Shown here one piece after another: positions 10,271-49,060 of a stretch of 64,000 bases of DNA. A model generated the notes under the pieces. The model did no database searches. It was given only the letters and a program-made list of their open reading frames with translations, and was not told the origin of the DNA. The stretch is from Bacillota bacterium. GTDB taxonomy: Bacteria > Bacillota > Clostridia > Christensenellales > CAMQZB01. The DNA is taken from assembly GCA_044426085.1 (NCBI GenBank), contig JAWXUU010000011.1:3069-67068 (forward strand), in the 5' to 3' direction. Position 1 is the stretch's first letter. Every line of letters starts with the position of its first letter. The position numbers and the translations under genes were made by a program.

Positions 10271-10360
<90 letters not shown>

Positions 10361-10463: not shown

Positions 10464-10485
10464 TGGGTAAGTTTTTGGGTAAGTT
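10464..10485. promoter_or_regulatory. Candidate arm-type integrase binding sites (2 x TGGGTAAGTT, 12-bp period)
   Basis: Direct repeats at 10464-10473 and 10476-10485, abutting the int stop. A third copy lies at 23258-23267 near the other end of E1. Confidence 0.5.
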
Positions 10486-11588
10486 CAGACCATTTTTTCT
10501 GCCTGTTCATATTCAAAATCATCCCTAACTTTCGTGTATACATTCATGGTCATATCTATCTTGCTGTGCCCCATCCACTTCTGCACAACCTTTGCTGGTA
10601 TTCCTTTTTCGTGGCAAATAGTCGCAAATGTCGTTCTTAAATCCTTTAGCGTTTTGTCTGGGATAATAAGATGAAAATGCTTCAGCATTGTCCGCATATT
10701 CAACTTTTCAAAAACTCTATCTTCCAGAACTTCGCCATCTGGGAAAAGCTTCTCCACGTTGGGGAACAGTGGAACAGTCCGCCTTGCGCCTTTGGTCTTA
10801 GTTCCACGCAAGTATATTGTCCTTTTCTCTCTGTCTATATCCGACATTCGCAACCGCAAGCCTTCACCAGCGCGCGCGCCGGTGAAAAGGCAAAATAAAA
10901 AATATCTGTTTTCAAGAACGTTAGTGTCAAGATTAAGCAGCTGCTGTATCTGATCTTGAGAAAGATATTCCGACTTGATTTCTGCCAGTGGCGCTATTGT
11001 CAAACCTTCAGCAACATTTTCTTTGATGTGCTTGTTTCTTATTGCGCATTTGAAAATATCACTAATATAATATTTAAGTTTCTTCTGTGAAGTGTGTCCA
11101 GCTTTCATGCTGTTGATGCATTGTTGGATGTCCTTATGTGTGACTTTGCGCAGCTCCTTATTTTCCAGTGTTGGATATAAGCTGATTGTGACCAGTGATT
11201 TTATATTGGATAATGTTTTGGGCGTTATCTTGCCTTCTTTATAAAGTTCCAGATATTCCTCAAACCATTCTCCGAAAGTGATTTTCTTTTTTTGTTGTAT
11301 TTCTTTTTTCTCGGTTTTGTTTTCATCCCTCCATTTTTTAAATTTTTTGTTGACTTCGAGCTTTGTCTTTCCGTAAATTGATTTTGAAACGCCATCTTGG
11401 CGAACTCTCAGCTCATACGTTCCGTTCGCTCGTGTTCTTATTTTAGCTTTTGTCATGTCTGATATCTCCTTTTCGATTTCAGCACATCCCATAGCTTGCC
11501 CACTCTGTTCTCGCTCTTTCGTATACTCCATGAGTATAGTTGTAAGCTTCAGTATCTCTTCTAACATCCTCTTTTGAAAATTGTCCAT
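10485..11588 (-). CDS. Tyrosine recombinase / phage-type integrase
   Basis: Arm-binding-type N-terminus (ANGTYELRVRQDGVSKSIYGKTKLE) and a C-terminal catalytic region (ARAGEGLRLRMSDID, RTVPL, LRTTFATICHEKG, GHSKIDMTMNVY). AAGGAGGG lies before ATG 11588. An alternative internal start at 11456 also has AAGGAG. Confidence 0.9.
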   Translation of the reverse strand: MDNFQKRMLEEILKLTTILMEYTKEREQSGQAMGCAEIEKEISDMTKAKIRTRANGTYELRVRQDGVSKSIYGKTKLEVNKKFKKWRDENKTEKKEIQQKKKITFGEWFEEYLELYKEGKITPKTLSNIKSLVTISLYPTLENKELRKVTHKDIQQCINSMKAGHTSQKKLKYYISDIFKCAIRNKHIKENVAEGLTIAPLAEIKSEYLSQDQIQQLLNLDTNVLENRYFLFCLFTGARAGEGLRLRMSDIDREKRTIYLRGTKTKGARRTVPLFPNVEKLFPDGEVLEDRVFEKLNMRTMLKHFHLIIPDKTLKDLRTTFATICHEKGIPAKVVQKWMGHSKIDMTMNVYTKVRDDFEYEQAEKMV

Positions 11589-12506: not shown

Positions 12507-12875
12507 TTATTTATATCTTTGTTGTTGCTCTTCTAATATTGCTGCAGCTCTTCCAAGTAGCTTCCAGCGATACTCTTTTTCTAAAGCTTCCCAAAATTGC
12601 TTCATTTCTTCATCTTCACGTGAGAGTTTTTTAGGTTGTGTTTTATATTCAATTACACCAAAGTCATTTTCTCTTCCAATTAAAAAATCAGTTGTACAAT
12701 TAAAAAAAATCGCAATTTTCTCAAGATAATCTATTGTTGGCCTTTGATTTTTGTTGAACCAGCCATTTATTGTTGTGTATGGGATTTTACACTGTATGGA
12801 TAATTGTCTTTGATTAATTTGGTTTTCAAACATTAATTCCTTTACTCTAATTGTAAATTTTTCTTGAACTTCCAT
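12507..12875 (-). CDS. XRE-family HTH repressor (cI-like)
   Basis: HTH_3-like QRQLSIQCKIPYTTINGWFNKNQRPTIDYLEKIAIFFNCTTDFLIGRE. Divergent from the rightward operon. Confidence 0.8.
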   Translation of the reverse strand: MEVQEKFTIRVKELMFENQINQRQLSIQCKIPYTTINGWFNKNQRPTIDYLEKIAIFFNCTTDFLIGRENDFGVIEYKTQPKKLSREDEEMKQFWEALEKEYRWKLLGRAAAILEEQQQRYK

Positions 12876-13721: not shown

Positions 13722-13979
13722 ATGTGGATTGGTAAAACCAAAAAAGGTAAAGACGTGACGCTTCTGACTCCTTCTGAAAAGTATGAGAAGTATACTAAAG
13801 AAAAAAAGTCTGGGTATAAGTATACAAATTCTGGACGTCCTAAACTTAATGAAAAGAAACAATGGATAAAATTGTCTTCAGAAGAAAAGGCTTATCGTGA
13901 TGGTTATAGAGCTCATGCAATTGATTCTTCTAAAGTCTATAATTCGAAGAACAATAAAAAGAAAACATCTAGGTATTAG
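13722..13979 (+). CDS. Hypothetical small basic protein
   Basis: GGAGG RBS. 85 aa, Lys-rich. Confidence 0.55.
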   Translation: MWIGKTKKGKDVTLLTPSEKYEKYTKEKKSGYKYTNSGRPKLNEKKQWIKLSSEEKAYRDGYRAHAIDSSKVYNSKNNKKKTSRY

Positions 13980-14259: not shown

Positions 14260-15564
14260 ATGAAATCAAAAATTAAAAATAATAAAAAAATATTGTTGTT
14301 GTTGGTGCTTACCCTTGTTATTGCACTGACTTACTCACTTTGTGTAGGTTTCACCTACGCCGAAGACACACCGAGATATATCTCTGACGACTATGGTATC
14401 GCAACAACTGATATTGTTAACGAAGAAACTCCAGCTGCGGATCCGGAAGACGGCAGCGTAGGTGATATCACTGAAACTTCTTACGATATTGGTCAAGCTA
14501 CATATGAATATGACGACATCGATGCTGATGAGCTTGCTGAATCAACATATGCTCCAGTTATCTCGCCAACAGACTCTGTGACTATAACAGCTTCAGTTGT
14601 TTATTCAGATACTGCAATTGATGAAACTGGATATTTGCAAATCATTGCAAAAACTCCATCAGATACAGTCTTTGCAAACTATGATGAAGTTATCACAGTG
14701 GCGGATTCAATCACATCAGAAACATCTTACACTGGTTCTTATACATTCTCAAACCTTGAAGCCGGCGAATATGAATTCATGTTCATGTTCTACACTTCAG
14801 CTGACGAAGTTGATGCAGTTTATTCAGTAGTCCAAACTGTTATGGTTTCAGGTTCTATCACAGAAATGTCAACAATCTCTTCAATCACAGTAAATTATGG
14901 CAGCTGCGTTTTCGCAAGCTTTACTCATGAAGCAGATGAAAACATGGGTACACTAGCTTATAACTGGTATATCGACGATGAATATTTCACAACAACTGAA
15001 GACCCTGAAATTGATATTTGCAATATGCCGGTTGGTGAATATGTAATGTATTGCAACATCGTTCCAGAAGTGGGCGTAGCAACAAAAACAAATTCATTTA
15101 ACGTGACAGTTCTTGCTATTGTTTCAGATGATGATGTTGTTATTGTATCTCCAACTTCAGTTGAAATCACTGAAGGCGAAAACGCAACTGTTATGGTTGA
15201 TGTTTCTGCACCAGCAGATTCAACAATCTCTTATATTTGGTATGTTTCTAATGTTCAAATCACAGATGTAAACAATTCGATTGTTTCTTTCTCTGGTCTT
15301 TCAGTCGGTGAATATTCTGTTTACTGTGTAGTCACTGTGGACGGTGTTTCTTATGAAACAGATGCAGCAACAATCACAGTTATTGAAAATACTTCAGTGG
15401 GCGTGACAGACACAGATACAGACACAGATACAGACGCTGATGCAGATGCAGAAGATGAAGAAGAAAGCACTCTTGACGGAATTCTTGAGTTCTTGAAAAC
15501 TTACTGGCTAATAATCGGTTGTATCATTGTTGTTGTCTTTGTTATCTATAAAAAGAAGCAATAA
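14260..15564 (+). CDS. Secreted, C-terminally anchored surface protein with two Ig-like modules
   Basis: 434 aa. N-terminal signal/TM, acidic region, two W(Y)..G.Y..YC modules, (TD)n/(AD)n acidic linker, and a TM helix ending YKKKQ. Homologue in E2 at 39445-40902. Confidence 0.75.
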   Translation: MKSKIKNNKKILLLLVLTLVIALTYSLCVGFTYAEDTPRYISDDYGIATTDIVNEETPAADPEDGSVGDITETSYDIGQATYEYDDIDADELAESTYAPVISPTDSVTITASVVYSDTAIDETGYLQIIAKTPSDTVFANYDEVITVADSITSETSYTGSYTFSNLEAGEYEFMFMFYTSADEVDAVYSVVQTVMVSGSITEMSTISSITVNYGSCVFASFTHEADENMGTLAYNWYIDDEYFTTTEDPEIDICNMPVGEYVMYCNIVPEVGVATKTNSFNVTVLAIVSDDDVVIVSPTSVEITEGENATVMVDVSAPADSTISYIWYVSNVQITDVNNSIVSFSGLSVGEYSVYCVVTVDGVSYETDAATITVIENTSVGVTDTDTDTDTDADADAEDEEESTLDGILEFLKTYWLIIGCIIVVVFVIYKKKQ

Positions 15565-15581
15565 AAATATAAGGGGTTTAT

Positions 15582-16337
15582 ATGAGAAAAAAAATATATA
15601 AACTCACTGTTTTCATTGTTTTGTTAACTCTTAGCTTTGCACTCTTCTCTGGCTTTACTTGGTGTCCTTATTGCAGTGAGTTATGTGAAGATTGCGGAGC
15701 AACGGGTTCAAGCAGTGAGTGTATTGATATGACACGTTATATATCTGAAGATGATTATTATTCCTATGCTGAAGACGAATACTTCTCTTGGGGATATGAA
15801 AAATTGTGTTTGGATATAAAGGGAACGTATGTTTGTGAATTGTGTTGGACAGTTACGCAAGCGGAAAATGATGATGTTTATTATTATGTAAACTATGAAA
15901 CGGGGATTGAATACATCTCTTACACTTGCCCAAATTGCGAAAATGTCCACATTATTCAGCTGAGCGATATCGTTTGGGAAGATTATTCTTATACGTATTA
16001 TGCTGACTATTTGACGGCTGTTTTCTTCCCTTGTGAAGATTTCAGTTTTGCATATGGCTGTCAAGCTGAAGACTGTGCAACTTGCGACGGTGTTGGTTAT
16101 TCACTTTGCAATCATCCAACAGTAGATACTGAAGATTTAGATATTGAAGATGAGTCCGACTCTGATGCCGGTGATGACGTTCCAACGGTCGACACAACGC
16201 AAAGCGCAACAAGCTCTGATGTAACTTTCTTCTCTGATGCATTTGAATGGGTGGAAGCAAATATTTTTATATCAATAATAATTGGTGGAGTAGTGATTAT
16301 CCTTTTGTTATTGCTTATTAAGAAAATGATGGGTTAA
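15582..16337 (+). CDS. Cys-rich secreted, C-terminally anchored protein
   Basis: 251 aa. Signal/TM, CxxC motifs (CPYC, CEDC, CELC, CPNC, CATCDGVG), acidic linker, and a TM helix ending KKMMG. Confidence 0.7.
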   Translation: MRKKIYKLTVFIVLLTLSFALFSGFTWCPYCSELCEDCGATGSSSECIDMTRYISEDDYYSYAEDEYFSWGYEKLCLDIKGTYVCELCWTVTQAENDDVYYYVNYETGIEYISYTCPNCENVHIIQLSDIVWEDYSYTYYADYLTAVFFPCEDFSFAYGCQAEDCATCDGVGYSLCNHPTVDTEDLDIEDESDSDAGDDVPTVDTTQSATSSDVTFFSDAFEWVEANIFISIIIGGVVIILLLLLIKKMMG

Positions 16338-16340
16338 AAT

Positions 16341-17906
16341 ATGAAAAAGATATGTAAGAAAAATAAAAATGTGCCAATTATCGCTGTTATTATTATATCA
16401 GTGATTTTTGGCATATTTTGCTTTCCAGCAGTTGCTTTCGCAGATGTTTATGTTGATTCTTACATATACGATTGTCCTGATTGTGAAAGTGGCACTGTCA
16501 CAAATCATCTAATATATGATTGTTCTGTATACGGCTGTATTGATGGTACGATTTCTTCAGATGTTACAACCACTTGCACAAGTTGTTCTGGGAATGCTGT
16601 TCTTTATACATATACTTCAACAACATGTTCGGCGTGTTCTGGGCTTGGCTATTATTATTCTTATAGCTATGATGGAGATGAAAGTAAACCTGAGTTTGTT
16701 AAAATTTTTGGTTGTACTGCATGCGGTGGATATGGTAGTGGTAATGAGTATAATGGAAGGACGTTTAGTTCTGCATTTTCATCTGCAATTACTTCTTTTG
16801 AGTCTTATATATCTTCCGGCACTGCGGCTTATGGTGCTGGAGTGATAACGTCTGTATCTTCAGCTGATTGTCCTTCATGTACTGATGGAAATATTTATTC
16901 CACAGCTTTTTCCGATTGTCCAGTATGTGTTGATGGAATTGTTGATGAAGTTTATTATACATCTTGTGATATATGTGATACTTTAGGTATTATTTTAGAC
17001 TCAAATGTATACACCTTCGATTGTCCAGATTGCACTGATGGAACATACACCACAGCAACAACAACTGACTGTCCAAACTGTACCGATGGAACAAAAACAA
17101 CCACAACAACGTCAACTTGCACGTCTTGCACAAATGGTTATGACTATTCATCTTTCTGCCTGAATTGTAGCGGTTATGGTTATTATGTAGAACCTATTTA
17201 TTATAAAAATACAACTTTAGTGGGGTATCTTCTATATGGATGCACTACTTGCGGGGGTTCGGGTTCATCTTCTGCGGTTGAATATGCCGATTTAGATTTT
17301 GATAATATAACATACGGTTGTGGAAAGGGTGATTGCTCCGATTGTGTTGGTGGGTTGATTTACACTGATACAATCTCCGATTGTACAACTTGCGGTGGTG
17401 AAGCTGTTTTATATGGCGACACTACATATGAATGCCCGACATGTTCTGGCATATCTTGCGTATTTAAAGGTATTGACATCCTCACAGTCTTGCCTGATGT
17501 TGCAATCCTTGACGATTCTTCTATAAATGTATCATTCGATACGTATGAAATAAATGACGTGGGCACTGTTGAATATATCTGGGTTATAAACAATAGTATC
17601 TATTCTTCTTCAAGCTCGCCAAATTTGGAACTTTCTTCAATTCCTATTGGAACTTACAAAGCTTATTGCATTGTGCTTTCGCAGTATGGGTTCACAACAG
17701 AAACGAATGAATTTACAATTTATTGTATTGATATAAATGACTATGGAAGCTTAGATTCTTCTGATAGTAGTGATAATTTTTCATTCACGGATGTGTTTTC
17801 TTCCGTGCTTGGGAATGGTTTTTCTAATGTAATTTTAATAACGGTATGTGCTGTGATTTTAATCCTTTTCTTATGCGTTATTTTTCTATATATAAAAAGG
17901 GGGTAA
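16341..17906 (+). CDS. Secreted protein with array of DnaJ-type CxxCxGxG / CxxCxDG knuckles, an Ig-like module and a C-terminal anchor
   Basis: 521 aa. I count 15 CxxC motifs (for example CSACSGLG, CTACGGYG, CLNCSGYG, CTTCGGSG, CPDCTDG, CPNCTDG). It also has one W..G.Y..YC module and a TM helix ending YIKRG. Confidence 0.8.
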   Translation: MKKICKKNKNVPIIAVIIISVIFGIFCFPAVAFADVYVDSYIYDCPDCESGTVTNHLIYDCSVYGCIDGTISSDVTTTCTSCSGNAVLYTYTSTTCSACSGLGYYYSYSYDGDESKPEFVKIFGCTACGGYGSGNEYNGRTFSSAFSSAITSFESYISSGTAAYGAGVITSVSSADCPSCTDGNIYSTAFSDCPVCVDGIVDEVYYTSCDICDTLGIILDSNVYTFDCPDCTDGTYTTATTTDCPNCTDGTKTTTTTSTCTSCTNGYDYSSFCLNCSGYGYYVEPIYYKNTTLVGYLLYGCTTCGGSGSSSAVEYADLDFDNITYGCGKGDCSDCVGGLIYTDTISDCTTCGGEAVLYGDTTYECPTCSGISCVFKGIDILTVLPDVAILDDSSINVSFDTYEINDVGTVEYIWVINNSIYSSSSSPNLELSSIPIGTYKAYCIVLSQYGFTTETNEFTIYCIDINDYGSLDSSDSSDNFSFTDVFSSVLGNGFSNVILITVCAVILILFLCVIFLYIKRG

Positions 17907-17908
17907 TC

Positions 17909-18040
17909 ATGAATAAACTCTTGATGTTTTTGGTATTGGTAATTGTTTTGTTGTTTACTCTGGATTCTTTGGGATATGTCGATTATTTCGATTTCATCGA
18001 ACCAGGGCAAGCAGTGTTTAGTAATATATTTGGAGAGTAA
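17909..18040 (+). CDS. Conserved 43-aa hydrophobic micro-protein
   Basis: MNKLLMFLVLVIVLLFTLDSLGYVDYFDFIEPGQAVFSNIFGE. GGGGG RBS. Same position and clear similarity to E2 43255-43395 (..LGYIDFFEFVEPDTAIFS..IFGE). Confidence 0.65.
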   Translation: MNKLLMFLVLVIVLLFTLDSLGYVDYFDFIEPGQAVFSNIFGE

Positions 18041-18043
18041 GAT

Positions 18044-19705
18044 ATGACAAAAATTTTTAAAAAAATTTTCAATATGGAAAATTTAAAAAAAGCTGCTGCG
18101 TTATTTGTAATCCTCGCAGTTTTGCTTTCTTTGTTCACTGGTTGCACTGTATCCATGAGCGATGATTGTTGCGATGATTGCGATGGATCTTATTTAGTAT
18201 TTGCATCAGAATATCCAACAGACTCTTGTGCGGATCCAAACTGCACCGATTGCACCGATTGCGAAAGTGTTTGTGTCGACTGTTCTGACTGTGATTTTGA
18301 TGTAGAGTTAATAAGTTCATCTTGGGTTGATTGTGCGGATTGCACCGACGGTGGCTCATACGTTGTTTCTTCTCGTGTTTGTACAACTTGTAGCGGTGTT
18401 GGAATTTTAACAAATCGTGTCACATCAACATGCCCAACTTGTCTGGGAACGGGCGTTGGTGTTTCTTATGTACAATGTATAGCTTGCGGCGGTGATGGCG
18501 TTTTTGTTTGTCCTGTTTGTGAAGGCTTGGGTTATTACACATCTAATGAGGAAAATTATGGTTGTACAAATTGTGGTGGTAACGGTCTTAGAATGGAAGG
18601 TGCTACTGCTCGAGCTGGAACTGGAACAGTAGATTGTGCTAACTGCGTTGATGGTTATTATACTTCAACTCGCTGCGGCACTTGTTCTGGAGCGGGTACT
18701 GTAGCTTCATGGGTTGCATCTGATTGTACTGTAACGGCTTGTAATGATGGAATAATCACAACAACAACTTGGGTTGAGTGTTCAACTTGTTTCGGTTCTA
18801 AAGGTTGGTGGATTGATAACGATACTACATATTGTGATTATTGCGGTTATTCACAGCTCGCAACTTGCCCCGATTGTTATGGTTATGGTTATGTGACTTT
18901 AGATGGTGAAAATTATGGCTGTGTTACTTGTGGTGGTAATGGTCTTAGAATGAATGGTGCGACGGCTATCGCTGGTTCTGGAACTATAGATTGTTCATAT
19001 TGTACTGATAGCGTGTATTACACTATTGACTTTGTATGTGTAGATTATGACGGCTATGGTTTTGATGATTATTCTGTAACTGTTAAACATGGTGATTCTA
19101 TCCCATCTATTCTCGGGTGGTCTGAAGATACATATTATTACACAACAACTCAAGCTGGCGGAACTACAATATCAAAAGATTCTGTTGCTGCAGATGATAT
19201 GACAATTTATGTGCAGATTTTAGGAGTGAGTGAAACTTTTACTGTCGCATATTATGAAGTCTCTTGGTCTTCAACATCATGTCAATATAATTTTGCATCA
19301 TCTGATATTTTGAGTGCAAATAGTATTATTGTTCCTTATGATGCGGATGATTTGATGTATGGTTCATCTTTTGAAGAATATGCAGATATTTATTCTTTTT
19401 TGGGCTGGACAACTTCTGATGATTTTTATATAAGTGTTGATTATAATGATTTTGATTCTTCGGATGTGATTGATTTTGATAGTTATCAAGTGACGTCTGA
19501 TTTAAGCTTATTTGCTGTTTATGATTGGACTGAACCAGCAGTGGATAATGATTCATTTTTTGAAGGTTTATTTGATTCTGATTCAAATTTATTTGAAGTA
19601 TTATTTGACTTCGATTCAAGCTTGGCAAATTATCTGGTCTATGGTCTTATAGCCTTGGTAGTTATCGGCATACTTTTGTTCGTGGTTTTGATGTTTAGAA
19701 AGTAG
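18044..19705 (+). CDS. Lipobox-bearing protein with duplicated DnaJ-type zinc-knuckle array, Flg_new-like C-terminal repeats and a C-terminal anchor
   Basis: 553 aa. Lipobox-like LFTGC. Internal duplication (CPVCEGLGYY..NYGCTNCGGNGLRMEGATA..VDCANCVDGYYT versus CPDCYGYGYV..NYGCVTCGGNGLRMNGATA..IDCSYCTDSVYYT). The Cys-free C-terminal part has ..LGW....D.T.Y / FLGWTTS...DLSLFAVYDW, resembling Listeria-Bacteroides repeats. TM helix ending MFRK. Confidence 0.8.
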   Translation: MTKIFKKIFNMENLKKAAALFVILAVLLSLFTGCTVSMSDDCCDDCDGSYLVFASEYPTDSCADPNCTDCTDCESVCVDCSDCDFDVELISSSWVDCADCTDGGSYVVSSRVCTTCSGVGILTNRVTSTCPTCLGTGVGVSYVQCIACGGDGVFVCPVCEGLGYYTSNEENYGCTNCGGNGLRMEGATARAGTGTVDCANCVDGYYTSTRCGTCSGAGTVASWVASDCTVTACNDGIITTTTWVECSTCFGSKGWWIDNDTTYCDYCGYSQLATCPDCYGYGYVTLDGENYGCVTCGGNGLRMNGATAIAGSGTIDCSYCTDSVYYTIDFVCVDYDGYGFDDYSVTVKHGDSIPSILGWSEDTYYYTTTQAGGTTISKDSVAADDMTIYVQILGVSETFTVAYYEVSWSSTSCQYNFASSDILSANSIIVPYDADDLMYGSSFEEYADIYSFLGWTTSDDFYISVDYNDFDSSDVIDFDSYQVTSDLSLFAVYDWTEPAVDNDSFFEGLFDSDSNLFEVLFDFDSSLANYLVYGLIALVVIGILLFVVLMFRK

Positions 19706-19716: not shown

Positions 19717-20088
19717 ATGGAATATACAACATTTGAAATCGTATTAAATATTGTGCTTATGATTGGTGTTTGGGTTATATGTGGAATTTCTCTTTGGAGA
19801 TGTGAGAAGTATTGCAAGAAAAAGAAAAAAGAAAAGGAAGCTGAAATTGCTGAATTTAAATCGCTTATAGAAAAGCAAAATTCTTTACTTTTGGATATAT
19901 GTGCTCAGACTCAAGCTTTAGTTGAAAAATTAGCACCAGGAGCAATTGTTAAAGATATGGGTATTCCGTATTATAATGATTGTCTTGGTGATGGAGTTGG
20001 TGATATCAATTCAATATGTTACGGCGCAATTGATGCCGGCACTAAAGAGTGGAAAAAACGGATGAATGTTTATAAAGAAGGTAAATAA
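19717..20088 (+). CDS. Hypothetical small membrane protein (N-terminal TM, coiled-coil)
   Basis: 123 aa. TM helix VLNIVLMIGVWVICGISLW followed by KKKKKEKE. Confidence 0.55.
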   Translation: MEYTTFEIVLNIVLMIGVWVICGISLWRCEKYCKKKKKEKEAEIAEFKSLIEKQNSLLLDICAQTQALVEKLAPGAIVKDMGIPYYNDCLGDGVGDINSICYGAIDAGTKEWKKRMNVYKEGK

Positions 20089-20428
20089 CGTGGAAAACTA
20101 CACAAATTTGTTATTGCTTGCAATTGTTTTGTTGATTGCTATTATCGTTATATCAAAGCTTGGTTTTGTATCAATCAAAAAGAAGAAAATAAAAATGGAA
20201 CTTGAGCATCTTAAAGATATATATTTGATAAGCTGGCGCGAGCTTGCGGATCTGCGCATTGATGAAAAATCCGAAAAAGTGAATGCTACGGCAATTTTTT
20301 CCCAAACACAATATTTAAATATTTTGGTTGGTAGGGTTCATGGCTACTGCTATTTGTTGGATTATACATATGAGTATGGCGCAAATAGTATCGTTATTTA
20401 TGATAAAAAGAAGAATGAGGTAATTTAG
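20066..20428 (+). CDS. Small membrane protein conserved upstream of the ATPase
   Basis: 120 aa (an alternative GTG start at 20090 has GAAGG upstream). The C-terminal block GRVHGYCYLLDY...IVIYDKKKNEVI aligns with E2 44983-45252 (GRIDGVCEILQY...VKIFKKNNLIKL). Confidence 0.6.
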   Translation: MFIKKVNNVENYTNLLLLAIVLLIAIIVISKLGFVSIKKKKIKMELEHLKDIYLISWRELADLRIDEKSEKVNATAIFSQTQYLNILVGRVHGYCYLLDYTYEYGANSIVIYDKKKNEVI

Positions 20429-20429: not shown

Positions 20430-21557
20430 TTGGTAGCCAGATTGAAAGAAATATCACCATCAATATTTTATTTTGGAATCCCTTTAGGTATCTGGGCTTC
20501 TGTTTTAATATTTATGATATTGAGAGCAATTCTTCCTTTTGTTTCTCTAAGCTGGATAGATATTGTTCTTTTTATACCGCCATGCATATTCATTTTTGTG
20601 CATGGCAAGTTATTTATCCAAATTATAAAGGGTATTATGCAATGTCTTGCGGAAAGCTTCGATCAGATAAATGAAGTTTACGTTATGCCTATTTGTGGCA
20701 TGGCGCGCGGCGGTAAAACCTTGTTGGGTTCTGCGATAGTTGTTCGCAAAAGTCAAATAAATTGGTATAAATTGCAGATGCAATATTTCAAAATGTCTAA
20801 ACTGCAATGGCTTTCAAAATATATTGATAATGAAGTATGGTCCGCGCGATGGTTTGAAGTTAAGGATTCATATGAGTATTGGATATCTTATCCAGAATAC
20901 ATACCATGTTTACTTTCTTCAATTCGAATCACGGATAAATACGGCAGATATTCTAAAGAGCTTCATCTGGAACACCTTTTGCAAAAAGAGCGTATCCCTG
21001 CATATTCTTATATTTTACTTGATGAAGCTGGTTCGGTGGTTGGGTTGTATTATTCAATGAATAAAGACCAGTCACTTATCAATTTTATCCGCTGGATTGG
21101 GCAGTTTTGCGAAGTTCATTTGATATTGACAGAACAGCGTGAATCGAATATAGCGATTGATATCAGAGAAGTCGTTGGTGCAGTTGTTATGGTTGAGATG
21201 GAAAAAAAGATGCAAGCGGTAAAAGGCTTGCAATTTGTCGAGAAGCTCGTGCAAATTGGCCATCAAAAAGGATGGTCGCCGAAAGCTTTTGATTGTATCC
21301 AAAAATTAGAGAATTGGTTTAATAAAGTCGGTTATTTTGCATTCACTATGTATGTTGATTATGGCAATGGTGTTGAAACAATTCATTCAAACATGTGTTG
21401 TAACATGCCGTATAGCTATGAATCGAGAGCATTTTCCCCACTGTATAAAGCGTTGGATAAGTCGTTCGGTGAAAATTCTTCAGATTGCAAGTTGATTTAT
21501 CCAGAATCACAAATGGGGCATTCAATATTAGATTACGAGGTAAAAGTCGATGGCTAA
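20430..21557 (+). CDS. Membrane-anchored P-loop NTPase (candidate assembly/export or DNA-translocating ATPase)
   Basis: TTG start. 375 aa. 2-3 N-terminal TM helices, Walker A GMARGGKT, Walker B YILLDEAG. Homologue in E2 at 45264-46403. Confidence 0.7.
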   Translation: MVARLKEISPSIFYFGIPLGIWASVLIFMILRAILPFVSLSWIDIVLFIPPCIFIFVHGKLFIQIIKGIMQCLAESFDQINEVYVMPICGMARGGKTLLGSAIVVRKSQINWYKLQMQYFKMSKLQWLSKYIDNEVWSARWFEVKDSYEYWISYPEYIPCLLSSIRITDKYGRYSKELHLEHLLQKERIPAYSYILLDEAGSVVGLYYSMNKDQSLINFIRWIGQFCEVHLILTEQRESNIAIDIREVVGAVVMVEMEKKMQAVKGLQFVEKLVQIGHQKGWSPKAFDCIQKLENWFNKVGYFAFTMYVDYGNGVETIHSNMCCNMPYSYESRAFSPLYKALDKSFGENSSDCKLIYPESQMGHSILDYEVKVDG

Positions 21558-22047: not shown

Positions 22048-23229
22048 ATGAATGAAAAAAATGAAGAAAAAAAAGGTAGAAAATGTCTTTATGACTGGGT
22101 TTCAATTTCATCAAAAATTCATACTGTTGATGAAATTATGTATATGTTAGGTATGGAGCAGTGTAAGTGGCAAAAAATGAAAGGTTTTTATGGGTATAAG
22201 CAAAGATTGTATTTTGAAAGTGTATCAATTCATTATGAAGGGCATGGAAACATGGGGGTATTTCTCGAAATGTCTGGTCAAGGCTGTAGAGCTTTTGAAA
22301 CGTTAGGCAATGGTAATTTTGAATGTTTATTTGATTTGGTTATTGCAAATCCAACAAATATGAATATAACTCGTTTAGATGTGGCTTACGATGATAAAGG
22401 TGATAAAAGTCTACCGCTGAAAAAAATTCTTGAAGACACGCAAAATGAAAATTTTGTTTCAATGTGGCATGAATATGAATATCTTTCTGGATCTAAAGGT
22501 ACAACGATTTATCATGGTTCAAAGCATTCTGATGTCAGACTTCGCATATATGATAAAGCTGCAGAACGTGGATACGATAAATTTGACGTCCAGTGGGTTC
22601 GTTGTGAGCTTCAGCTCCGCGATGATCGCGCTTTGAATTTTATTAAGCTTGATATGCCTATTGGTGATAAGTTTAGTGGTGTTCTGAAAAATTATATAAG
22701 ATATATTGTTCCTGATCGTTCTCGAAAATTCAATTGTTCAATGACAAAATATTGGAAAAAAATCTTAGGTGATATTGAAAAGATTTCAATATATTCAAAG
22801 CCAGGGTTGGAATACAACTTGATGAACATCCACAGACATATAATTCGCAGCTGCGGTGGTGGTGTCAAAACTCTTTTGAAAATATATGGTGTTGATGGTT
22901 TTGTGAACTTGGTAAACAAATATTCAAAAATAACGAATCCAAAACATATAAAAATTCTGACAGACTTTGAAAGCTTCAATGATTTTGAAAATTTGTTGAA
23001 TAATGACAAAGTAATGAAAAGTTTCTTCGGCTATGAATACTACATGTACAAGACTTATATCGACAGCATTGACATGTTGACTGAAGAAGATATTAAAGAT
23101 GAAAATGCAACAGTCGAAGAAGCCAAGGAACTTGAGTTCGAAAGAAAAATTGTCGATGACTTAGTTGAAATCAAGAAGCTTCAGGAACGTAGCAAAAAAC
23201 GTGAATGGATATATGATGTTCATGATTAA
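22048..23229 (+). CDS. Rep_trans-family rolling-circle replication initiator
   Basis: 393 aa with NITRLDVAYDD, VRLRIYDKAAERG and VRCELQLRDDRA. These motifs are characteristic of the Rep_trans (pT181 RepC / Tn916 Orf20 / some inovirus gpII) family. Confidence 0.8.
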   Translation: MNEKNEEKKGRKCLYDWVSISSKIHTVDEIMYMLGMEQCKWQKMKGFYGYKQRLYFESVSIHYEGHGNMGVFLEMSGQGCRAFETLGNGNFECLFDLVIANPTNMNITRLDVAYDDKGDKSLPLKKILEDTQNENFVSMWHEYEYLSGSKGTTIYHGSKHSDVRLRIYDKAAERGYDKFDVQWVRCELQLRDDRALNFIKLDMPIGDKFSGVLKNYIRYIVPDRSRKFNCSMTKYWKKILGDIEKISIYSKPGLEYNLMNIHRHIIRSCGGGVKTLLKIYGVDGFVNLVNKYSKITNPKHIKILTDFESFNDFENLLNNDKVMKSFFGYEYYMYKTYIDSIDMLTEEDIKDENATVEEAKELEFERKIVDDLVEIKKLQERSKKREWIYDVHD

Positions 23230-23313: not shown

Positions 23314-23372
23314 ACTGTAAATCTGCCGTCTCCGACTTCGGTGGTTCGAATCCACCACCACCCACCACGAAA
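23314..23372 (+). repeat. attR of E1 (59-bp copy of tRNA-Tyr 3' part)
   Basis: Identical to 10302-10360. No 5' half of a tRNA is present. Confidence 0.9.
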
Positions 23373-36163: not shown

Positions 36164-36247
36164 GCGGATATGGCGGAATTGGCAGACGCGCTAGACTTAG
36201 GATCTAGTGTCTACGACATGGGGGTTCAAGTCCCTTTATCCGCACCA
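36164..36247 (+). tRNA. tRNA-Leu (UAG), integration target of E2
   Basis: Acceptor GCGGATA/TATCCGC, anticodon loop CTTAGGA, long variable arm, encoded CCA. Its 3' part is repeated at 49005-49060 and partly at 49227-49254. Confidence 0.9.
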
Positions 36248-36251
36248 TTCT
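36196..36251 (+). repeat. attL of E2 (56-bp core repeat)
   Basis: CTTAGGATCTAGTGTCTACGACATGGGGGTTCAAGTCCCTTTATCCGCACCATTCT, identical to 49005-49060. Confidence 0.9.
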
Positions 36252-36476: not shown

Positions 36477-37574
36477 CTACTTTTTGTCTAGTGTATTGTT
36501 ATTAAACTGCTCGGCTATTTGTTGATCAAACTTTTCGCTTTCACGTAATGCAAAATCTTCACGCACATCGGTGTATATATCCATAGTCATGGCTATTGTT
36601 GTGTGCCCCATCCACGATTGCACAACCTTTTGTGATATACCATATTCATGGCAATTTGTCGCAAAGGTCTTGCGTAAATCTCGCACTGTTCGATTTTCAA
36701 AAATTTTGTGAAATTGACGTGTAACATAATCGGGTTTGTAATCAAATTTAAGTTCTTTATCTCCCAACAACCGTTTAACACTATCAAAGAACGGTAACAT
36801 CCTTTGCGACTTCTTAGTTTTTGTCCCATTAACTTTGAAAAAGTTTTCTGTGCATTCTTTCGGATTAAATCGCAAAGCTTCGCTTCTGCGTTGCCCAGTT
36901 AAAAGCACGAATATATAATATTTTTTCAAATTCTCTGACACTGCTTTTGTTTTGAACAAAATTTCTTGTTCTGCTTTCGTTAGTGCAATAGAATGGATTT
37001 TATCATAGACAACAACATTTAATTGCTCCGCTGGATCAATTTTAATTACGTTGTTTATTCTTGCCGTTTTAAACAGTGATTTTATATAGCACCTTATTTT
37101 ATGCCTTGTGTTTCCGCCTTCGATATTATTCAAAAGTCGTTGCAAATCTGCATTAGTTATCCGTCTGATGTTTTTAGAGCCGATATTGCCACGGATATGC
37201 TTATTGGTTATGTACTGAATACTTTTGAATGTATCTTTAGAACATGAAGGCTTTTTATATATTTCTAGCCATTCATCAAGCCATTGCCCTACTGTTGTAA
37301 CAGTAGGCTTTTTTGTTTTTTCTGGTTTAAACTCGGCTTTCCATGCTTTGTATTTTTGTACTACAATAGCTTGTGTTTTGCCGTAAAAACCTATTCTTTC
37401 ACCTTCGTATGTGATTCTTAGCTCCCACACGTTGTTTTTTCTTTTTCTTAAAGTGTTTCCTGCAACTTTCATTATTTCTTCTTCCTTTTGGTTGTTATTT
37501 TGAAATAATGCAGTTTCTTTCGCACTTCCCCCCGCTGGTTCGTACCAGTTATGACTTTGTGTTGCACCATCCAT
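36477..37574 (-). CDS. Tyrosine recombinase / phage-type integrase
   Basis: NNVWELRITYEGERIGFYGKTQ arm-binding-type N-terminus. GQRRSEALRF, LRKTFATNCHEYG, GHTTIAMTMDIY. Coordinates give the maximal ORF. An AAGGAAG RBS favours ATG 37472. An upstream mini-ORF with a strong SD is out of frame (see findings). Confidence 0.88.
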   Translation of the reverse strand: MDGATQSHNWYEPAGGSAKETALFQNNNQKEEEIMKVAGNTLRKRKNNVWELRITYEGERIGFYGKTQAIVVQKYKAWKAEFKPEKTKKPTVTTVGQWLDEWLEIYKKPSCSKDTFKSIQYITNKHIRGNIGSKNIRRITNADLQRLLNNIEGGNTRHKIRCYIKSLFKTARINNVIKIDPAEQLNVVVYDKIHSIALTKAEQEILFKTKAVSENLKKYYIFVLLTGQRRSEALRFNPKECTENFFKVNGTKTKKSQRMLPFFDSVKRLLGDKELKFDYKPDYVTRQFHKIFENRTVRDLRKTFATNCHEYGISQKVVQSWMGHTTIAMTMDIYTDVREDFALRESEKFDQQIAEQFNNNTLDKK

Positions 37575-39163: not shown

Positions 39164-39427
39164 ATGAATTGGAAAATATTAGCAATTGTGTTGATTGTAG
39201 TTGTTGTTATCGTTGGGGCTTATAGCTTTGGAATCGGGTATTTCACTGAAGAAGAATCCGTTGACGATGGAACGGCGGAAGTGCTAGAAAGTTTTGATGT
39301 AAGTGGTAGCATTCAATCGGACTTCTGGGATAGTTTCAGTGATTGGCTTTGGGCTAATTTGTGGTGGATGTGTGGTGCTGGTCTTATCGTTTGGGGTGTG
39401 ACAAGCTATGCAAAATCACGAAAATAA
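39164..39427 (+). CDS. pVIII-like small membrane protein (candidate major coat protein)
   Basis: 87 aa. MNWKILAIVLIVVVVIVGAYS signal-like helix, acidic segment, Trp-rich hydrophobic helix, basic tail YAKSRK. The N-terminus aligns with E1 13991-14242. Confidence 0.6.
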   Translation: MNWKILAIVLIVVVVIVGAYSFGIGYFTEEESVDDGTAEVLESFDVSGSIQSDFWDSFSDWLWANLWWMCGAGLIVWGVTSYAKSRK

Positions 39428-39444: not shown

Positions 39445-40902
39445 ATGAAAACGAAAATTAAAAATAAAAGTAAAATTATGAAACTGCTTTCAGTTTCGCT
39501 TGTGGCTGTTCTGTGCATGTCAACGTTGGTGGGTTTCGCTAACCCTGCCGAAACGTGTTTCGCTTGCACAGATTGTGATGATTGTGTGTCAGATATGGCA
39601 CTTGATGGCGATGACATGCCAGTGGCTCAAATTGCTTGCGATGAAAGCTGTGGATGTGGCGGAACTGACTACACACTTTATGGCTGTGATTCCATTTGTG
39701 AATGTGGCACTGCAGTAGCTATCATTGATGACGGCATTGCAACTATCAGTGATGATTCAGAAGAAGACACACTTGTTGTTGGAACATACACATATTCATA
39801 TGATTTGGGACTAGCTTCTTATTCATATGATGAATCAGAACTAACTGCAGATAACGAAGATATCACAACAACATCATACAGCCCATCAATCTCTGGTGAT
39901 GCTGATGTGACAATTTCAGCTTCTGTTCAATATCCAGAAAGCGCGGACGGTGATGAAGGTCTAGTTCAAATTTACTATCTTGGACCAGATGAGAGCACTT
40001 TCGCTGCATATCTAGACGACCCAGAACAAGTCATTGCTGAAATCGATTATGAAGAAACATACACATATTCATACACATTTGAAGACCTTGAAGCTGGTAT
40101 GCATAAAATCATTTTCAAGTTCTATTCAGACGATGATGACGTGAACGCAGTTTACACAACAGCAAGCACAGTTATTGTTTCTGGAACAATCACAGAAATG
40201 TCAACAATATCAGACGTATCAATGACTTCTGGAACAGACACAGATGTTTCATTCACATTCACAACAAACGGTGATTTGGGCGACCTTTCATATGTTTGGT
40301 ATCTCAACAATACAGCATACGAAACAACAGAAGATCCAGAAATCACTTTGAACACTCTTGAAGCTGGTATCTACACTATGTTTTGTAGAATCAAACCATC
40401 AGTTGGAACAGCTGTCGATACAAACTCTTTCACAGTGACAGTAGGTTCTGCCGTTGGCGAAGGTGGTATTATCATCGTTTCGCAACCAAGTGACGTACAA
40501 GTTAAAGCTGGTGAAGCTGCAACAGTTTCAATCTCGATGACAGCAGAAGACGGTCTTGCTATTGGATACGAATGGTATATCAACGATAGTGCTATTGAAA
40601 ACAGCAACACATCAACAATTTCATTCAAAGACCTTTCAGTTGGTTCGTATGACGTATATTGTGACGTTTCTATCGATGGCGAATATTCTTTCACAACAGA
40701 CATTGCAACGATTTCTGTTATCGAAGAAGACGCAGACGCTGACACTGAAACAGACGCAGACGCGGACGTTGACAGTGAAGAAGATGAAGAAACATTCTTG
40801 ACAAAAGCAAACAACTGGTACGACGAAAACACAACTCTATTTTGGGTTATTATCGGTCTTGGTGTTGTCGTTATTATTTATCTAGTAAAGAAAAATAAAT
40901 AG
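39445..40902 (+). CDS. Secreted, C-terminally anchored surface protein with two Ig-like modules
   Basis: AGGAG RBS before ATG 39445 (track ORF opens at 39361). 485 aa. Cys-rich N-terminal part, long alignable stretch with E1 14260-15564 (..VSGTITEMSTIS..), acidic (AD/TD) linker, and a TM helix ending KKNK. Confidence 0.78.
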   Translation: MKTKIKNKSKIMKLLSVSLVAVLCMSTLVGFANPAETCFACTDCDDCVSDMALDGDDMPVAQIACDESCGCGGTDYTLYGCDSICECGTAVAIIDDGIATISDDSEEDTLVVGTYTYSYDLGLASYSYDESELTADNEDITTTSYSPSISGDADVTISASVQYPESADGDEGLVQIYYLGPDESTFAAYLDDPEQVIAEIDYEETYTYSYTFEDLEAGMHKIIFKFYSDDDDVNAVYTTASTVIVSGTITEMSTISDVSMTSGTDTDVSFTFTTNGDLGDLSYVWYLNNTAYETTEDPEITLNTLEAGIYTMFCRIKPSVGTAVDTNSFTVTVGSAVGEGGIIIVSQPSDVQVKAGEAATVSISMTAEDGLAIGYEWYINDSAIENSNTSTISFKDLSVGSYDVYCDVSIDGEYSFTTDIATISVIEEDADADTETDADADVDSEEDEETFLTKANNWYDENTTLFWVIIGLGVVVIIYLVKKNK

Positions 40903-40910: not shown

Positions 40911-42260
40911 ATGAAGAAAAATACTGTTAAAAAATTGAATACTGTTTTTGTCAGTTTTCTGCTGATATTAACAGTATTTTTCTGTTCTTTTGGTTCATGT
41001 TTTACCACAGCTTTTGCAAGTGACTTATTCCCTTGCGATTGCCCAGATTGTTCTGACGGCACAACAACAACGCAAATAACAACAGATTGCACAGCGAGTG
41101 GGTGTGTGGATGGTGAAATAACAACAGAAGTATCTTCAACATGTTTGACTTGTTCTGGTAATGCTGTCGTTTATACATCTACATCAGCTACATGTACTAC
41201 TTGTAGTGGTGTTGGAAGTTTTGTTTGTTCGTCATGTAGTGGAAAGGGTTACATCACTTTTGGGGAAGACATTGATGATTATACATCATATCATTGTATT
41301 GCATGTACAGCATGTGGGGGTTTCGGTGGTAGTCCTGTTGGGTATGGTTCATCAACTCTTGCTAAAAGTCAATTTGATTCCCGTGTTTTGAGTGGCACTG
41401 CCGCATATGGTTCGGGTTCAATTTCATGTTCTGTGTGTTCTGGGACAGGCACAAAAACAACAGTAACATCATCAGACTGCCCAGACTGCACCGACGGCAA
41501 TATATATACTACAGCAACATCAGATTGCCCAGCTTGTATCGATGGTGAAATAACAACAGAATCAACAATCACATGCCCAACGTGCGACGGCACTCAAATT
41601 ATATATATCGGACTGGACAACCTTTCCACGATACCGACAGTTCTCATGACAGAAGACACAGAATTCACTGTCGTATTCACATATGGTGAACTTGGTGATG
41701 TGGGTTCTTTAGAATTTGTTTGGTATATCAACAACATTGCATATAAAGTCACGGATACGGCGAGTTTAACACTCACTGAGCTTCCAGTGGGTATTTATGG
41801 AATGTATTGTGAAATAACTTCATCGGTAGGTTTTTCCACAACCACAAACCAGTTTGAAATACAAGTGAATCCAGCACAGCAAACGACGTATATTCAAATA
41901 GCACAGCAACCTTCATCTTATACGATTAAGCAAGGGGAATCGGTGGCTATTGAACTCGATGAAGAAAATGCTTCAGCAGTTGTTTGGTATGTGAACGATA
42001 TTGAAACAGCGTCTGACGTCATGGAAATTGACCTTTCCGTTTATGATATCGGGGTTTATGAAATCTATTGTGAATATACAATCGAAGAAGAAAGCTTCAC
42101 ATCAGACGTCGCAACGGTTTCTATCGTTAACGATGACGGTTTTACAGAAGATATTGAATCAGCTTGGGATAATGTTGTCAGTGGCTTCTGGATAGCTATT
42201 GGGGCGGGTCTTGCAGCTGCATTACTTGCATATCTTGCAGTCAAAGCAAGTAAAAAATAG
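40911..42260 (+). CDS. Secreted Cys-knuckle protein with two Ig-like modules and a C-terminal anchor
   Basis: 449 aa. The N-terminal half aligns with the N-terminal half of E1 16341-17906 (CPDCSDGTTTTQITTDC..CLTCSGNAVVYTSTSATCTTCSGVG). TM helix ending KASKK. Confidence 0.8.
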   Translation: MKKNTVKKLNTVFVSFLLILTVFFCSFGSCFTTAFASDLFPCDCPDCSDGTTTTQITTDCTASGCVDGEITTEVSSTCLTCSGNAVVYTSTSATCTTCSGVGSFVCSSCSGKGYITFGEDIDDYTSYHCIACTACGGFGGSPVGYGSSTLAKSQFDSRVLSGTAAYGSGSISCSVCSGTGTKTTVTSSDCPDCTDGNIYTTATSDCPACIDGEITTESTITCPTCDGTQIIYIGLDNLSTIPTVLMTEDTEFTVVFTYGELGDVGSLEFVWYINNIAYKVTDTASLTLTELPVGIYGMYCEITSSVGFSTTTNQFEIQVNPAQQTTYIQIAQQPSSYTIKQGESVAIELDEENASAVVWYVNDIETASDVMEIDLSVYDIGVYEIYCEYTIEEESFTSDVATVSIVNDDGFTEDIESAWDNVVSGFWIAIGAGLAAALLAYLAVKASKK

Positions 42261-45252: not shown

Positions 45253-45263
45253 GAGTGAATCAT

Positions 45264-49004: not shown

Positions 49005-49060
49005 CTTAGGATCTAGTGTCTACGACATGGGGGTTCAAGTCCCTTTATCCGCACCATTCT
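49005..49060 (+). repeat. attR of E2 (56-bp copy of tRNA-Leu 3' part)
   Basis: Identical to 36196-36251. Followed by its own hairpin terminator AAAGCACCTAGGTA..TACCTAGGTGCTTT. Confidence 0.9.

Follow-up and report, generated by a model that had tools for sequence, protein, structure and literature searches.

Tandem CxxC-knuckle ectodomains in candidate pIII-like proteins of two related inovirus-like prophages of a Bacillota bacterium

Background

The pIII protein of the Ff phages carries a signal, a modular ectodomain, a C-terminal anchor and a short polar or basic tail, as do Orf6 of Propionibacterium phage B5 and ORF1 of the Spiroplasma plectrovirus SpV1; in Ff, its gene sits between the genes for the major coat protein and the pI-type ATPase, and its ectodomain varies while the anchor is kept. 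The same layout, gene position and pattern of variation are found in a 64,000-nucleotide stretch of DNA (here called the window) from a Bacillota bacterium (GenBank assembly GCA_044426085.1, contig JAWXUU010000011.1, positions 3,069 to 67,068), where two related small prophages, element 1 and element 2, reside in one genome. The subject of this report is a set of four element-1 genes at window positions 14260 to 19705, encoding proteins of 434, 251, 521 and 553 amino acids (aa) (p434, p251, p521 and p553), three of which are rich in CxxC motifs, referred to below as knuckles. Unlike the pIII systems, these elements encode four large proteins rather than one, one of the four is a predicted lipoprotein, and 8 to 18 CxxC motifs are found where the reference proteins have none.

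The elements are also comparable to Plectroviridae and to inovirus-like prophages with an "atypical pI," with which they share an ATPase that has an N-terminal transmembrane domain (TMD) and a family that appears closest to Zot, a short TMD protein, a replication initiator (Rep) of the G2P or rolling-circle replication (RCR) type and attachment (att) sites in tRNA genes (PMC6813254), whereas the larger size (13 kb), the spore-forming Bacillota host and the four large anchored proteins set them apart. About 30% of inovirus species have such an atypical pI with an N-terminal TMD, and some of these may be separate virus groups; inoviruses have likewise been described as exchanging their replication and integration modules while the structural module stays fixed (PMC6813254). 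The Plasmaviridae, i.e., Acholeplasma virus L2, provide a further comparison, with a size of ~12 kb, integration into tRNA genes and anchored envelope proteins encoded upstream of a small protein with two transmembrane (TM) segments and a structurally similar ATPase. In contrast to the proteins described here, however, those of L2 (L13696) are almost Cys free, the host of L2 is wall-less rather than sporulating, and L2 replicates from DnaA-box origins and not by way of an RCR Rep. According to their ICTV profile, plasmaviruses have no proteins homologous to those of other viruses apart from the integrase.

For the knuckles themselves, the DnaJ zinc domain (PF00684; PDB 1EXK and 1NLT) and its small relative anti-TRAP have CxxCxGxG and a similar spacing in common with the proteins reported here, which differ from DnaJ in having 8 to 18 tandem knuckles instead of four, no client-binding domains and a DCPxCTDG motif class without a DnaJ counterpart. 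In overall architecture, Giardia variant-specific surface proteins (VSPs) are similar, being type I proteins with a signal peptide, a CXXC-packed ectodomain, a TM segment at the C terminus and a basic tail of five residues (PMC2996952).

We lean, if only slightly, toward the reading that p251, p521 and p553, along with p434, are functional equivalents of pIII, that is, adsorption or tip proteins of a virion, with distal arrays of Zn(Cys)4 knuckles. This reading builds on what is established here, namely, the enrichment and conservation of the motifs, the predicted topology, the ends of the prophages, the gene order and the family affinity of the ATPase, from which we infer a filamentous morphology, virion location, receptor binding, metal binding and the array's shape.

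Cysteine-knuckle proteins of element 1

Four plus-strand genes are tightly packed in the interval, with one small open reading frame (ORF) between two of them:

14260..15564, plus strand: p434, predicted type I membrane protein with immunoglobulin (Ig)-like repeats and no CxxC (Pfam Y_Y_Y, E = 3.1e-7, and SpaA, E = 3.5e-6, both above cut-offs)
15582..16337, plus strand: p251, predicted Cys-rich type I membrane protein with 15 Cys and 5 CxxC, found only in element 1, including contigs of the same element
16341..17906, plus strand: p521, with predicted signal peptide, 16 knuckles (15 CxxC and 1 CxxxxC), Ig-like membrane-proximal domain, acidic linker, TM segment and basic tail
17909..18040, plus strand: small hydrophobic ORF of 43 aa between knuckle genes; a gene call in contigs L006, L008 and L009, with a 46-aa gene at the same place in L001
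18044..19705, plus strand: p553, with predicted lipobox signal, variable Cys-rich N terminus, conserved core with 14 knuckles and the 64-aa duplication, two beta-rich repeats, acidic linker, TM segment and basic tail

An earlier note, made from the letters of the stretch without database searches, had placed these genes correctly and had counted the 15 CxxC motifs of p521 exactly, and the two peptides that it quoted are present (p553 residues 113 to 165 and p521 residues 227 to 260). It had described the whole interval in terms of knuckle arrays, which applies to three of the proteins but not to p434, a protein with Ig-like repeats and no CxxC. Compared with 2000 residue shuffles, the CxxC counts of 5 in p251 (shuffle mean, 0.8), 15 in p521 (mean, 3.0; maximum, 10) and 18 in p553 (mean, 2.9; maximum, 10) are enriched, and Cys makes up 6.0 to 7.7% of the residues of the knuckle proteins. 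The distance from knuckle to knuckle is mostly 11 to 18 residues, with 16 to 17 being the most common, and a CxxxxC variant (e.g., C61-C66 of p521 and C228-C233 of p553) is kept in position among homologues. In p553, one set of CxxCxGxG motifs is found at residues 113, 130, 145 and 156; a second set comprises those at 156, 174 and 211 and a CxxCxxG at 198, which lies between the last two. The internal duplication of about 60 aa that the note had seen in this protein was borne out, as residues 144 to 207 align with residues 263 to 327 over 64 residues with a score of 210, compared with 39 ± 7 for shuffled sequences.

Hydropathy analysis revealed one N-terminal and one C-terminal hydrophobic segment in each protein, the latter followed by a short basic tail (KKKQ, KKMMG, IKRG and FRK among those seen), so that the signal and anchor described in the note were found again in every case. 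Its description of the proteins as doubly anchored, on the other hand, can be retained for only one family. Since a conserved lipobox, [LM]F[TAS]GC, is present only in the p553 family, double anchoring appears to be limited to that family and does not extend to p251 or p521; F31, G33 and C34 are invariant in five homologues, whose variants (LFTGC, LFAGC, MFSGC, LFTGC and MFTGC) fit the pattern expected of a predicted lipoprotein. By inspection, the N-terminal hydrophobic segments of p434 and p521 end in an AxA-type signal-peptidase-I motif, and none was seen in that of p251. On the basis of these motifs, p434 and p521 would be single-anchored type I proteins and members of the p553 family would be anchored at both ends. 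The extracellular location of the knuckle proteins is that predicted from their topology.

Close to the membrane, p521 has a domain that is homologous to the Ig-like repeats of p434 (E = 2e-11). Aligned with its relatives, p521 consists, in order, of the N-terminal knuckle array of a 449-aa type, eight extra knuckles and a complete 325-aa type, both of which types are encoded by adjacent genes in element 2; p521 therefore looks as though the N-terminal part of the 449-aa type had been fused to the 325-aa type, unless it was element 2 that split the two. For the C-terminal repeats of p553, a Flg_new-like match (E = 0.04) provides a lead only.

Two families were compared. The p553 family has five members with 32 to 52% identity (p553, its paralogue at 43399 to 44970, P0006, P0007 and P0008), and the p521/449/325 family has seven members with 32 to 59% identity. 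The invariant columns in both are mostly Cys and the Gly that follows, so that the cysteines are conserved among homologues, and a lack of such conservation, which the note had named as a refutation, was not borne out. Among 138 CxxC motifs in 15 family proteins, 63 (46%) are CxxCxGxG, 18 are CxxCxG and 26 are CxxCxxG, with Gly at position +5 in 81 of the 138 and at position +7 in 76; His is almost absent, and the ectodomains are strongly acidic. A second class of motif is the Thr-rich DCPxCTDG. The DnaJ-type pattern claimed in the note stands at the level of the motif, although it fits p251 poorly, in which only one of five motifs is CxxCxGxG.

The group is small and very rare. Among 5.8 billion proteins, searches recovered only 4, 4 and 7, those of the window itself included, for a family of approximately ten proteins, and no relatives were found in GTDB representative genomes, in JGI metagenome contigs or in 72,556 plasmids; in 50,697 deposited phage records, there was only DnaJ-motif noise, in Lak megaphages. 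Scans of the knuckle proteins against PHROGs and NCBIfam gave nothing above threshold, and there was no Pfam or PHROG structural-protein match. In line with the note, which could match them to no described family, no described or curated family in Pfam, NCBIfam, PHROGs or the PDB contains the knuckle proteins.

Proposed role as pIII-like virion proteins

The four large-protein genes are tightly packed between the gene for a small coat-like protein and the gene for the ATPase, most of them with a purine-rich, Shine-Dalgarno-like stretch upstream. This is the slot of the pIII gene, which the earlier note had missed, together with the inovirus/plectrovirus-like nature of the prophage and a paralogous set 25 kb downstream. 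In four elements, hydropathy places a signal at the N terminus, a TM segment at the C terminus and a basic tail behind it in all 16 of the large proteins, the topology also of M13 pIII, phage B5 Orf6, SpV1 ORF1 and L2 ORF13, none of which contains a CxxC. A related locus, L025, whose ATPase is ~30% identical to that of element 1, fills the same slot with three type I proteins that contain no CxxC and whose ectodomains are of the Ig/PKD and Flg_new-like kinds, the anchor having been retained and the ectodomain swapped. Since a conserved anchor and proximal domain are combined with shuffled distal modules, a role in host recognition is suggested. No sequence homology of the knuckle proteins to any known pIII was detected with Pfam, with PHROGs or among the phage records.

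Were the proteins equivalents of pIII, they would be exported through Sec and would stay in the cytoplasmic membrane, anchored at the C terminus and with the basic tail on the inner side, until ATPase-driven extrusion took them up into the virion, on which they would display their distal ends for host recognition. The ectodomain would be modular, with a membrane-proximal Ig-like or beta-rich domain carrying the distal CxxC array, and knuckles ~16 to 17 residues apart would pair as Zn(Cys)4 centres of the DnaJ or rubredoxin type. Such pairing may give a compact, cross-braced stalk that needs no disulfide-forming machinery and would therefore suit an exported protein of a Bacillota host.

Zinc or disulfide

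The criterion of four CxxCxGxG motifs within ~65 residues, which describes the DnaJ zinc domain, applies to p553, and the Pfam profile DnaJ_CXXCXGXG (PF00684) aligns to its residues 156 to 218 over the whole 65-position profile (E = 2e-4), with a score of 21.9 bits against a gathering threshold of 32.7; PF00684 gave no match in p521 or p251. The NCBIfam DnaJ models reached at most 30 bits, compared with cut-offs of >330. In the PDB, the only recognisable similarities were to the zinc domains of DnaJ, Ydj1 and anti-TRAP, with the DnaJ hits (E = 0.008 to 0.03) below cut-offs, and a direct PDB sequence search with p553 returned chance nanobody matches, with DnaJ at E = 0.09. Because the scores stay below every curated cut-off, homology to DnaJ is not established, and the likeness is best regarded as one of motifs. 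Membership in DnaJ/Hsp40 itself was rejected, there being no J domain or DnaJ_C match in proteins with a signal or lipobox and a C-terminal TM segment, which are predicted to be exported.

A second line of evidence comes from the number of knuckles. The seven proteins of the p521/449/325 family have 8, 8, 8, 16, 10, 10 and 8 (with a knuckle in the signal peptide of the 449-aa protein set aside), and the conserved cores of the five proteins of the p553 family have 14, 14, 14, 14 and 12, all of which are even. The changes in count between homologues are even as well: P0008 loses the adjacent pair C174/C198, the 469-aa protein of L005 has two fewer, the 449-aa type has two more and p521 has eight more. 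Even parity is to be expected if two knuckles make one four-Cys site, whereas intra-knuckle disulfides need none; its maintenance over four independent events (~1 in 16 by chance) is suggestive of Cys4 sites. Furthermore, the loss of inner knuckles C174 and C198 from P0008 leaves the outer pair, which is compatible with the nested 1+4/2+3 zinc topology of DnaJ. Taken together with the two motif classes, i.e., the DnaJ knuckle CxxCxGxG and the rubredoxin/zinc-ribbon knuckle CPxC, the sequences favour Cys4 metal centres.

The strongest competitor leaves the proposed role untouched and differs in chemistry only: the cysteines might form disulfides, as in EGF-, furin- or VSP-like proteins, or the CxxC motifs might be redox active, with a DnaJ-like thiol-disulfide isomerase activity. 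Disulfides are the usual state of extracytoplasmic Cys-rich repeats, and they stabilize pIII of Ff, which has 8 Cys. The VSPs lend some weight to this, too, since their zinc binding is substoichiometric (PMC2996952). However, the CxxCxGxG and CPxC signatures and the 11- to 17-residue spacing match the Zn(Cys)4 sites of DnaJ and of zinc ribbons, the even knuckle numbers were kept through all four indel events, and Firmicutes tend to keep Cys out of the proteins that they export and to be tolerant of reductant (PMC2823432); that the host is an anaerobe, as the note had it, is probable. With this avoidance of Cys among Firmicutes being general (PMC2823432), a Cys content of 7 to 8% in an exported protein is notable under either chemistry. 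We regard disulfide or redox chemistry as possible but doubtful.

The VSPs deserve mention for their architecture as well. They average 12.6 CXXC per kb of gene (PMC2996952), compared with ~10 to 11 per kb for p521 and p553, and metal binding has been reported for them, as has a hypervariable ectodomain on a conserved anchor (PMC2996952). Nevertheless, they are eukaryotic, they are without GxG after the knuckle and they have no sequence relationship to the proteins here, in which the ~38-aa C-terminal region ending in CRGKA and a Pfam VSP match are both absent. We therefore rejected membership in the VSPs, and the resemblance is one of convergent architecture only.

Two prophages and the type of particle

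Element 1 measures 13.0 kb and has its ends in a tRNA-Tyr gene. Besides the genes given above, it contains the following features and also codes for a 147-aa protein (after the repressor) and an 88-aa protein (in the gap between ATPase and Rep):

10302..10360, plus strand: attL, a perfect direct repeat of 59 bp that consists of the 3' part of tRNA-Tyr (10271 to 10355) and 5 nt, identical to 23314 to 23372
10485..11588, minus strand: tyrosine integrase, 367 aa (Pfam Phage_integrase, 2e-18, with a SAM-like N-terminal domain; PHROG 1, 1.5e-62)
11697 to 12497, minus strand: 266-aa multi-TM protein between integrase and repressor, with no family match, only in element 1
12507..12875, minus strand: XRE-type helix-turn-helix (HTH) repressor, 122 aa, divergent from the structural operon (weak HTH_3/HTH_26 match on the identical gene of L008)
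13722..13979, plus strand: very basic, Lys-rich 85-aa protein by composition; homologue of 45% identity at the same position in L005 (2008 to 2289), homologues being ~85 to 93 aa
13991..14242, plus strand: candidate major coat protein, 83 aa, with N-terminal hydrophobic signal, acidic segment, hydrophobic segment and basic C terminus
19717..20428, plus strand: two small single-TM proteins, 123 and 120 aa, in overlapping reading frames
20430..21557, plus strand: P-loop ATPase of the morphogenesis type, 375 aa, with a helical membrane hairpin at its N terminus (atypical pI layout)
22048..23229, plus strand: RCR initiator, 393 aa (Pfam Rep_trans, 7.6e-31; Rol_Rep_N, 1.9e-13; weak Phage_CRI [G2P])
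23314..23372, plus strand: attR, identical to attL

The position of the 266-aa protein suggests a gene expressed during lysogeny, such as one for superinfection exclusion.

Element 2, located 25 kb downstream of the element-1 set, measures 12.8 kb (36196 to 49060) and lies in a tRNA-Leu gene:

36196..36251, plus strand: attL, a 56-bp perfect repeat in the 3' part of tRNA-Leu, identical to 49005 to 49060
36477..37574, minus strand: putative integrase, 365 aa, assigned by position and orientation alone, as in element 1
39164..39427, plus strand: coat-like 87-aa protein with a pVIII-like layout
39445..40902, plus strand: predicted type I protein with an N-terminal Cys cluster and Ig-like repeats (ATG at 39445 with a ribosome-binding site; longest ORF from GTG at 39361)
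40911..42260, plus strand: 449-aa knuckle protein (P0003), 10 knuckles and two Ig-like domains
42273..43250, plus strand: 325-aa knuckle protein (P0002), 8 knuckles and one Ig-like domain
43399..44970, plus strand: 523-aa lipobox knuckle protein, the p553 paralogue (41% identity)
45255..46403, plus strand: ATPase, 382 aa, with N-terminal TM segments, 25% identical to the element-1 ATPase
46779..47582, plus strand: HTH_36 protein (Pfam, 5.5e-11), probable replication initiator in place of the RCR Rep
49005..49060, plus strand: attR, identical to attL

The features common to both elements are the integrase (putative in element 2), the divergent HTH repressor, the small coat-like protein, the four large anchored proteins and the ATPase. 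Because perfect tRNA repeats flank units that have an integrase beside the tRNA and a divergent HTH repressor, both are, judging by these features, temperate prophages integrated in tRNA genes. That the knuckle genes would always be found on integrase/Rep/ATPase elements, a point raised in the note, proved correct. Contigs from other samples (L001 to L004) keep the structural module with other replication genes (REP_ORF2-G2P in L001 and L003), and REP_ORF2-G2P adjoins the ATPase in five related loci (L001, L003, L011, L025 and L029); in L005 (9511 to 10593; type read from motifs) and L024 (1534 to 2586; Pfam Viral_Rep and RNA_helicase), the Rep combines HUH and superfamily-3 helicase domains and stands beside the same family of ATPase. 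Replication modules thus vary among the elements, and the structural module stays constant. A Rep with HUH and superfamily-3 helicase domains is typical of eukaryotic CRESS-DNA viruses and matches the unusual iPF_00203 of Roux et al. (PMC6813254).

The ATPase was assigned through its family, which comprises 178 clusters at 50% identity and for which a profile was built from 65 aligned sequences. Pfam Zot was matched by 13 of these 65 (best E = 5e-9), with any other Pfam family matched by at most one. With hhalign, the family profile matched ORF2 of the Spiroplasma plectrovirus SpV1-R8A2B (94.9%, E = 4.6e-8) and pI of M13 (83%, E = 8.9e-6), and HMMER aligned the former in three collinear segments: the first spans the TM hairpin and Walker A, the second runs from SN[IY]P through Walker B to RHFG..Q..IR, and the third is the C-terminal KYDS. 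An AlphaFold model of the ATPase (pLDDT 91) consists of a helical hairpin (residues 2 to 74) followed by a P-loop core; its Foldseek matches in the PDB were STIV B204, the Zot N domain (2R2A), FtsK, HerA and EssC, and those in BFVD were best for viral entries A0A894JLK1 (E = 8.5e-12) and A0A894JLK4 (E = 2.5e-6), with Inoviridae Zot at 7e-6 and L2 ORF3 at 9.6e-6 over 381 columns.

The coat-like protein of 83 to 87 aa is conserved in all four related elements, its MNWK start being invariant, and at 83 and 87 aa, respectively, the proteins of elements 1 and 2 fall within the 30 to 90 aa given for an inovirus structural protein with a TMD (PMC6813254). An inovirus-type Rep is represented here by Rep_trans with weak Phage_CRI, and the perfect repeats of 59 and 56 bp exceed the minimum of 10 bp for a direct repeat that, in a tRNA or beside an integrase, defines an att site. 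By these published sequence definitions, the elements appear to be inovirus-like prophages with the closest affinity to plectroviruses, and they would belong to the filamentous-phage (Tubulavirales-like) assemblage, in a group with an N-terminal-hairpin pI/Zot ATPase, whose virions would be filamentous.

An enveloped, pleomorphic vesicle of the plasmavirus kind would leave the surface and host-recognition role intact, with the knuckle proteins as spikes or fusion proteins and with the 85-aa protein condensing the genome. The L2 genome is laid out similarly, with ORF13 and ORF14 (signal and C-terminal TM segment), ORF1, the small 2-TM ORF2 and the ORF3 ATPase with an N-terminal helical region, and the Foldseek match of the ATPase model to L2 ORF3 agrees with this; L2-like prophages are ~12 kb and integrate into tRNA genes (PMC12662186), an envelope accommodates a lipoprotein and several large anchored proteins more readily than the tip of a filament does, and the replication protein of element 2 is a non-RCR HTH_36 protein. 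At the sequence level, though, the ATPase profile has no similarity to L2 ORF3 (hhalign, 4%; HMMER, 2 bits), whereas plectrovirus ORF2 and M13 pI do match, and members of the family match Pfam Zot. RCR/G2P-type Reps stand beside the ATPase in most loci, and a pVIII-like small protein is present. The host, moreover, encodes SpoIVA and is therefore considered a walled spore-former (the closest GTDB genome, a Bacillota metagenome-assembled genome [MAG], is 76% identical, followed by Clostridia/Firmicutes MAGs at 45 to 50%), and we know of no budding of enveloped virions through peptidoglycan in bacteria. We consider a plasmavirus-like vesicle unlikely. As an observation in its own right, the structure of L2 ORF3 (L026, 2278 to 3216) and the gene order hint at a link between plasmaviruses and plectrovirus-type elements.

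Several results weigh against a filamentous virion that carries zinc-knuckle equivalents of pIII. As described above, the DnaJ score of p553 and the DnaJ hits in the PDB lie below cut-offs, and an AlphaFold2 model of p553, based on the five-sequence alignment, gave no usable fold (mean pLDDT, 33; pTM, 0.20). With the patterns tried, no relatives of the knuckle proteins were found in IMG/VR, though IMG/VR holds the published inovirus set. The ATPase of the window has itself no Pfam, PHROG or NCBIfam match, so that the link to Zot runs via relatives and profiles, and STIV B204, A32-like packaging ATPases and L2 ORF3 score about as Zot does in Foldseek. Four large anchored proteins, one of them a lipoprotein, and a very basic 85-aa protein are atypical of inoviruses and resemble the layout of L2, and a lipid-anchored N terminus is awkward for a protein that leaves with the filament. 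The 85-aa protein may possibly bind or condense DNA, and a condensing role of this ~85- to 93-aa group would favour a non-filamentous particle; to our knowledge, canonical inoviruses are without such a very basic small protein. Finally, stand-alone copies of element 1 with 100% identity occur in several runs, e.g., L008 (Logan SRR26557937, 13,013 bp, equivalent to window positions 10331 to 23343). We ruled out this contig as an excised circular form, since its ends fall exactly at k=31 graph breaks in the 59-bp att repeat, and it is thus no evidence of excision.

Alternatives to a virion role

The proteins could instead stay on the surface of the lysogen, as adhesins, aggregation factors or agents of superinfection exclusion, or could form an apparatus for extrusion across the wall. 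Their cell-surface topology, with Ig-like and SpaA/Y_Y_Y-type domains, is that of Gram-positive adhesins, the lipobox of the p553 family favours retention in the cell membrane, and the element has no evident secretin or other component for crossing the wall, a role that some of the proteins could take on. Yet the large proteins take up 40% of the element, and their genes lie inside the coat-to-ATPase operon, not at its edge, in a slot that the four elements with knuckle genes and L025 all keep, their replication modules being different in each case; in addition, neither LPXTG nor any other signal for wall anchoring is present, and the anchor, a TM segment at the C terminus with a basic tail, is of the pIII/ORF13 type. 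Retention on the lysogen is, in our judgment, quite unlikely.

Although Rep_trans proteins act as relaxases in the Tn916 family and the ATPase is structurally of the FtsK-HerA superfamily, with N-terminal TM segments and with FtsK, EssC and HerA among its Foldseek matches, we rejected as very improbable an integrative mobilisable or conjugative element (in which Rep_trans would be the relaxase, the ATPase a coupling protein similar to FtsK/TcpA and the knuckle proteins adhesins for mating), given that the 13 kb contain no VirB4, type IV secretion system or other transfer genes, that the ATPase has the wrong affinity (no FtsK or TcpA Pfam match, with 13 of 65 relatives matching Zot), that sister elements have a Rep of the G2P or CRESS type or lack an HUH protein altogether and that the plasmids searched contain no homologues.

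Significance

Returning to the pIII-like reading, we speculate, with considerable reserve, that the elements represent an undescribed lineage of small extruded viruses between Plectroviridae and Plasmaviridae that infect spore-forming Bacillota, in which four anchored proteins, serving in host recognition, carry tandem arrays of Zn(Cys)4 beads as a disulfide-independent fibre scaffold without precedent among phage receptor-binding or bacterial surface proteins. If extracellular chains of Zn(Cys)4 centres do exist, they would be a new structural solution, offering rigidity and protease resistance without disulfides in a phylum that avoids Cys (PMC2823432), and would be relevant to structural biology, to protein design and to the receptor-binding proteins of phages of anaerobes. 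The inovirus/plectrovirus-like prophage type was already known, and it is the tandem, putatively zinc-binding knuckle ectodomain that was previously uncatalogued; its weight is limited by the approximately ten proteins known, by an uncultured host and by functional statements that are all inference. Two complete prophages with exact ends in one genome nevertheless offer an example, open to experiment, of the little-understood atypical-pI third of inovirus-like sequences (PMC6813254), and the shared ATPase is a structural hint that connects the orphan family Plasmaviridae with this group.

Other features of the window

A 28-bp exact third copy of part of the tRNA-Leu att sequence is located at 49226 to 49253, 166 bp past attR of element 2, and may be a scar left by tandem integration or by a previous event. 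Further downstream, the region from 54000 to 62000 has a G+C content of 27 to 29%, compared with 36 to 41% elsewhere, and a strong positive GC skew; it includes the gene for a 583-aa Ser/Thr protein kinase (59087 to 60838) and may be another acquired island.

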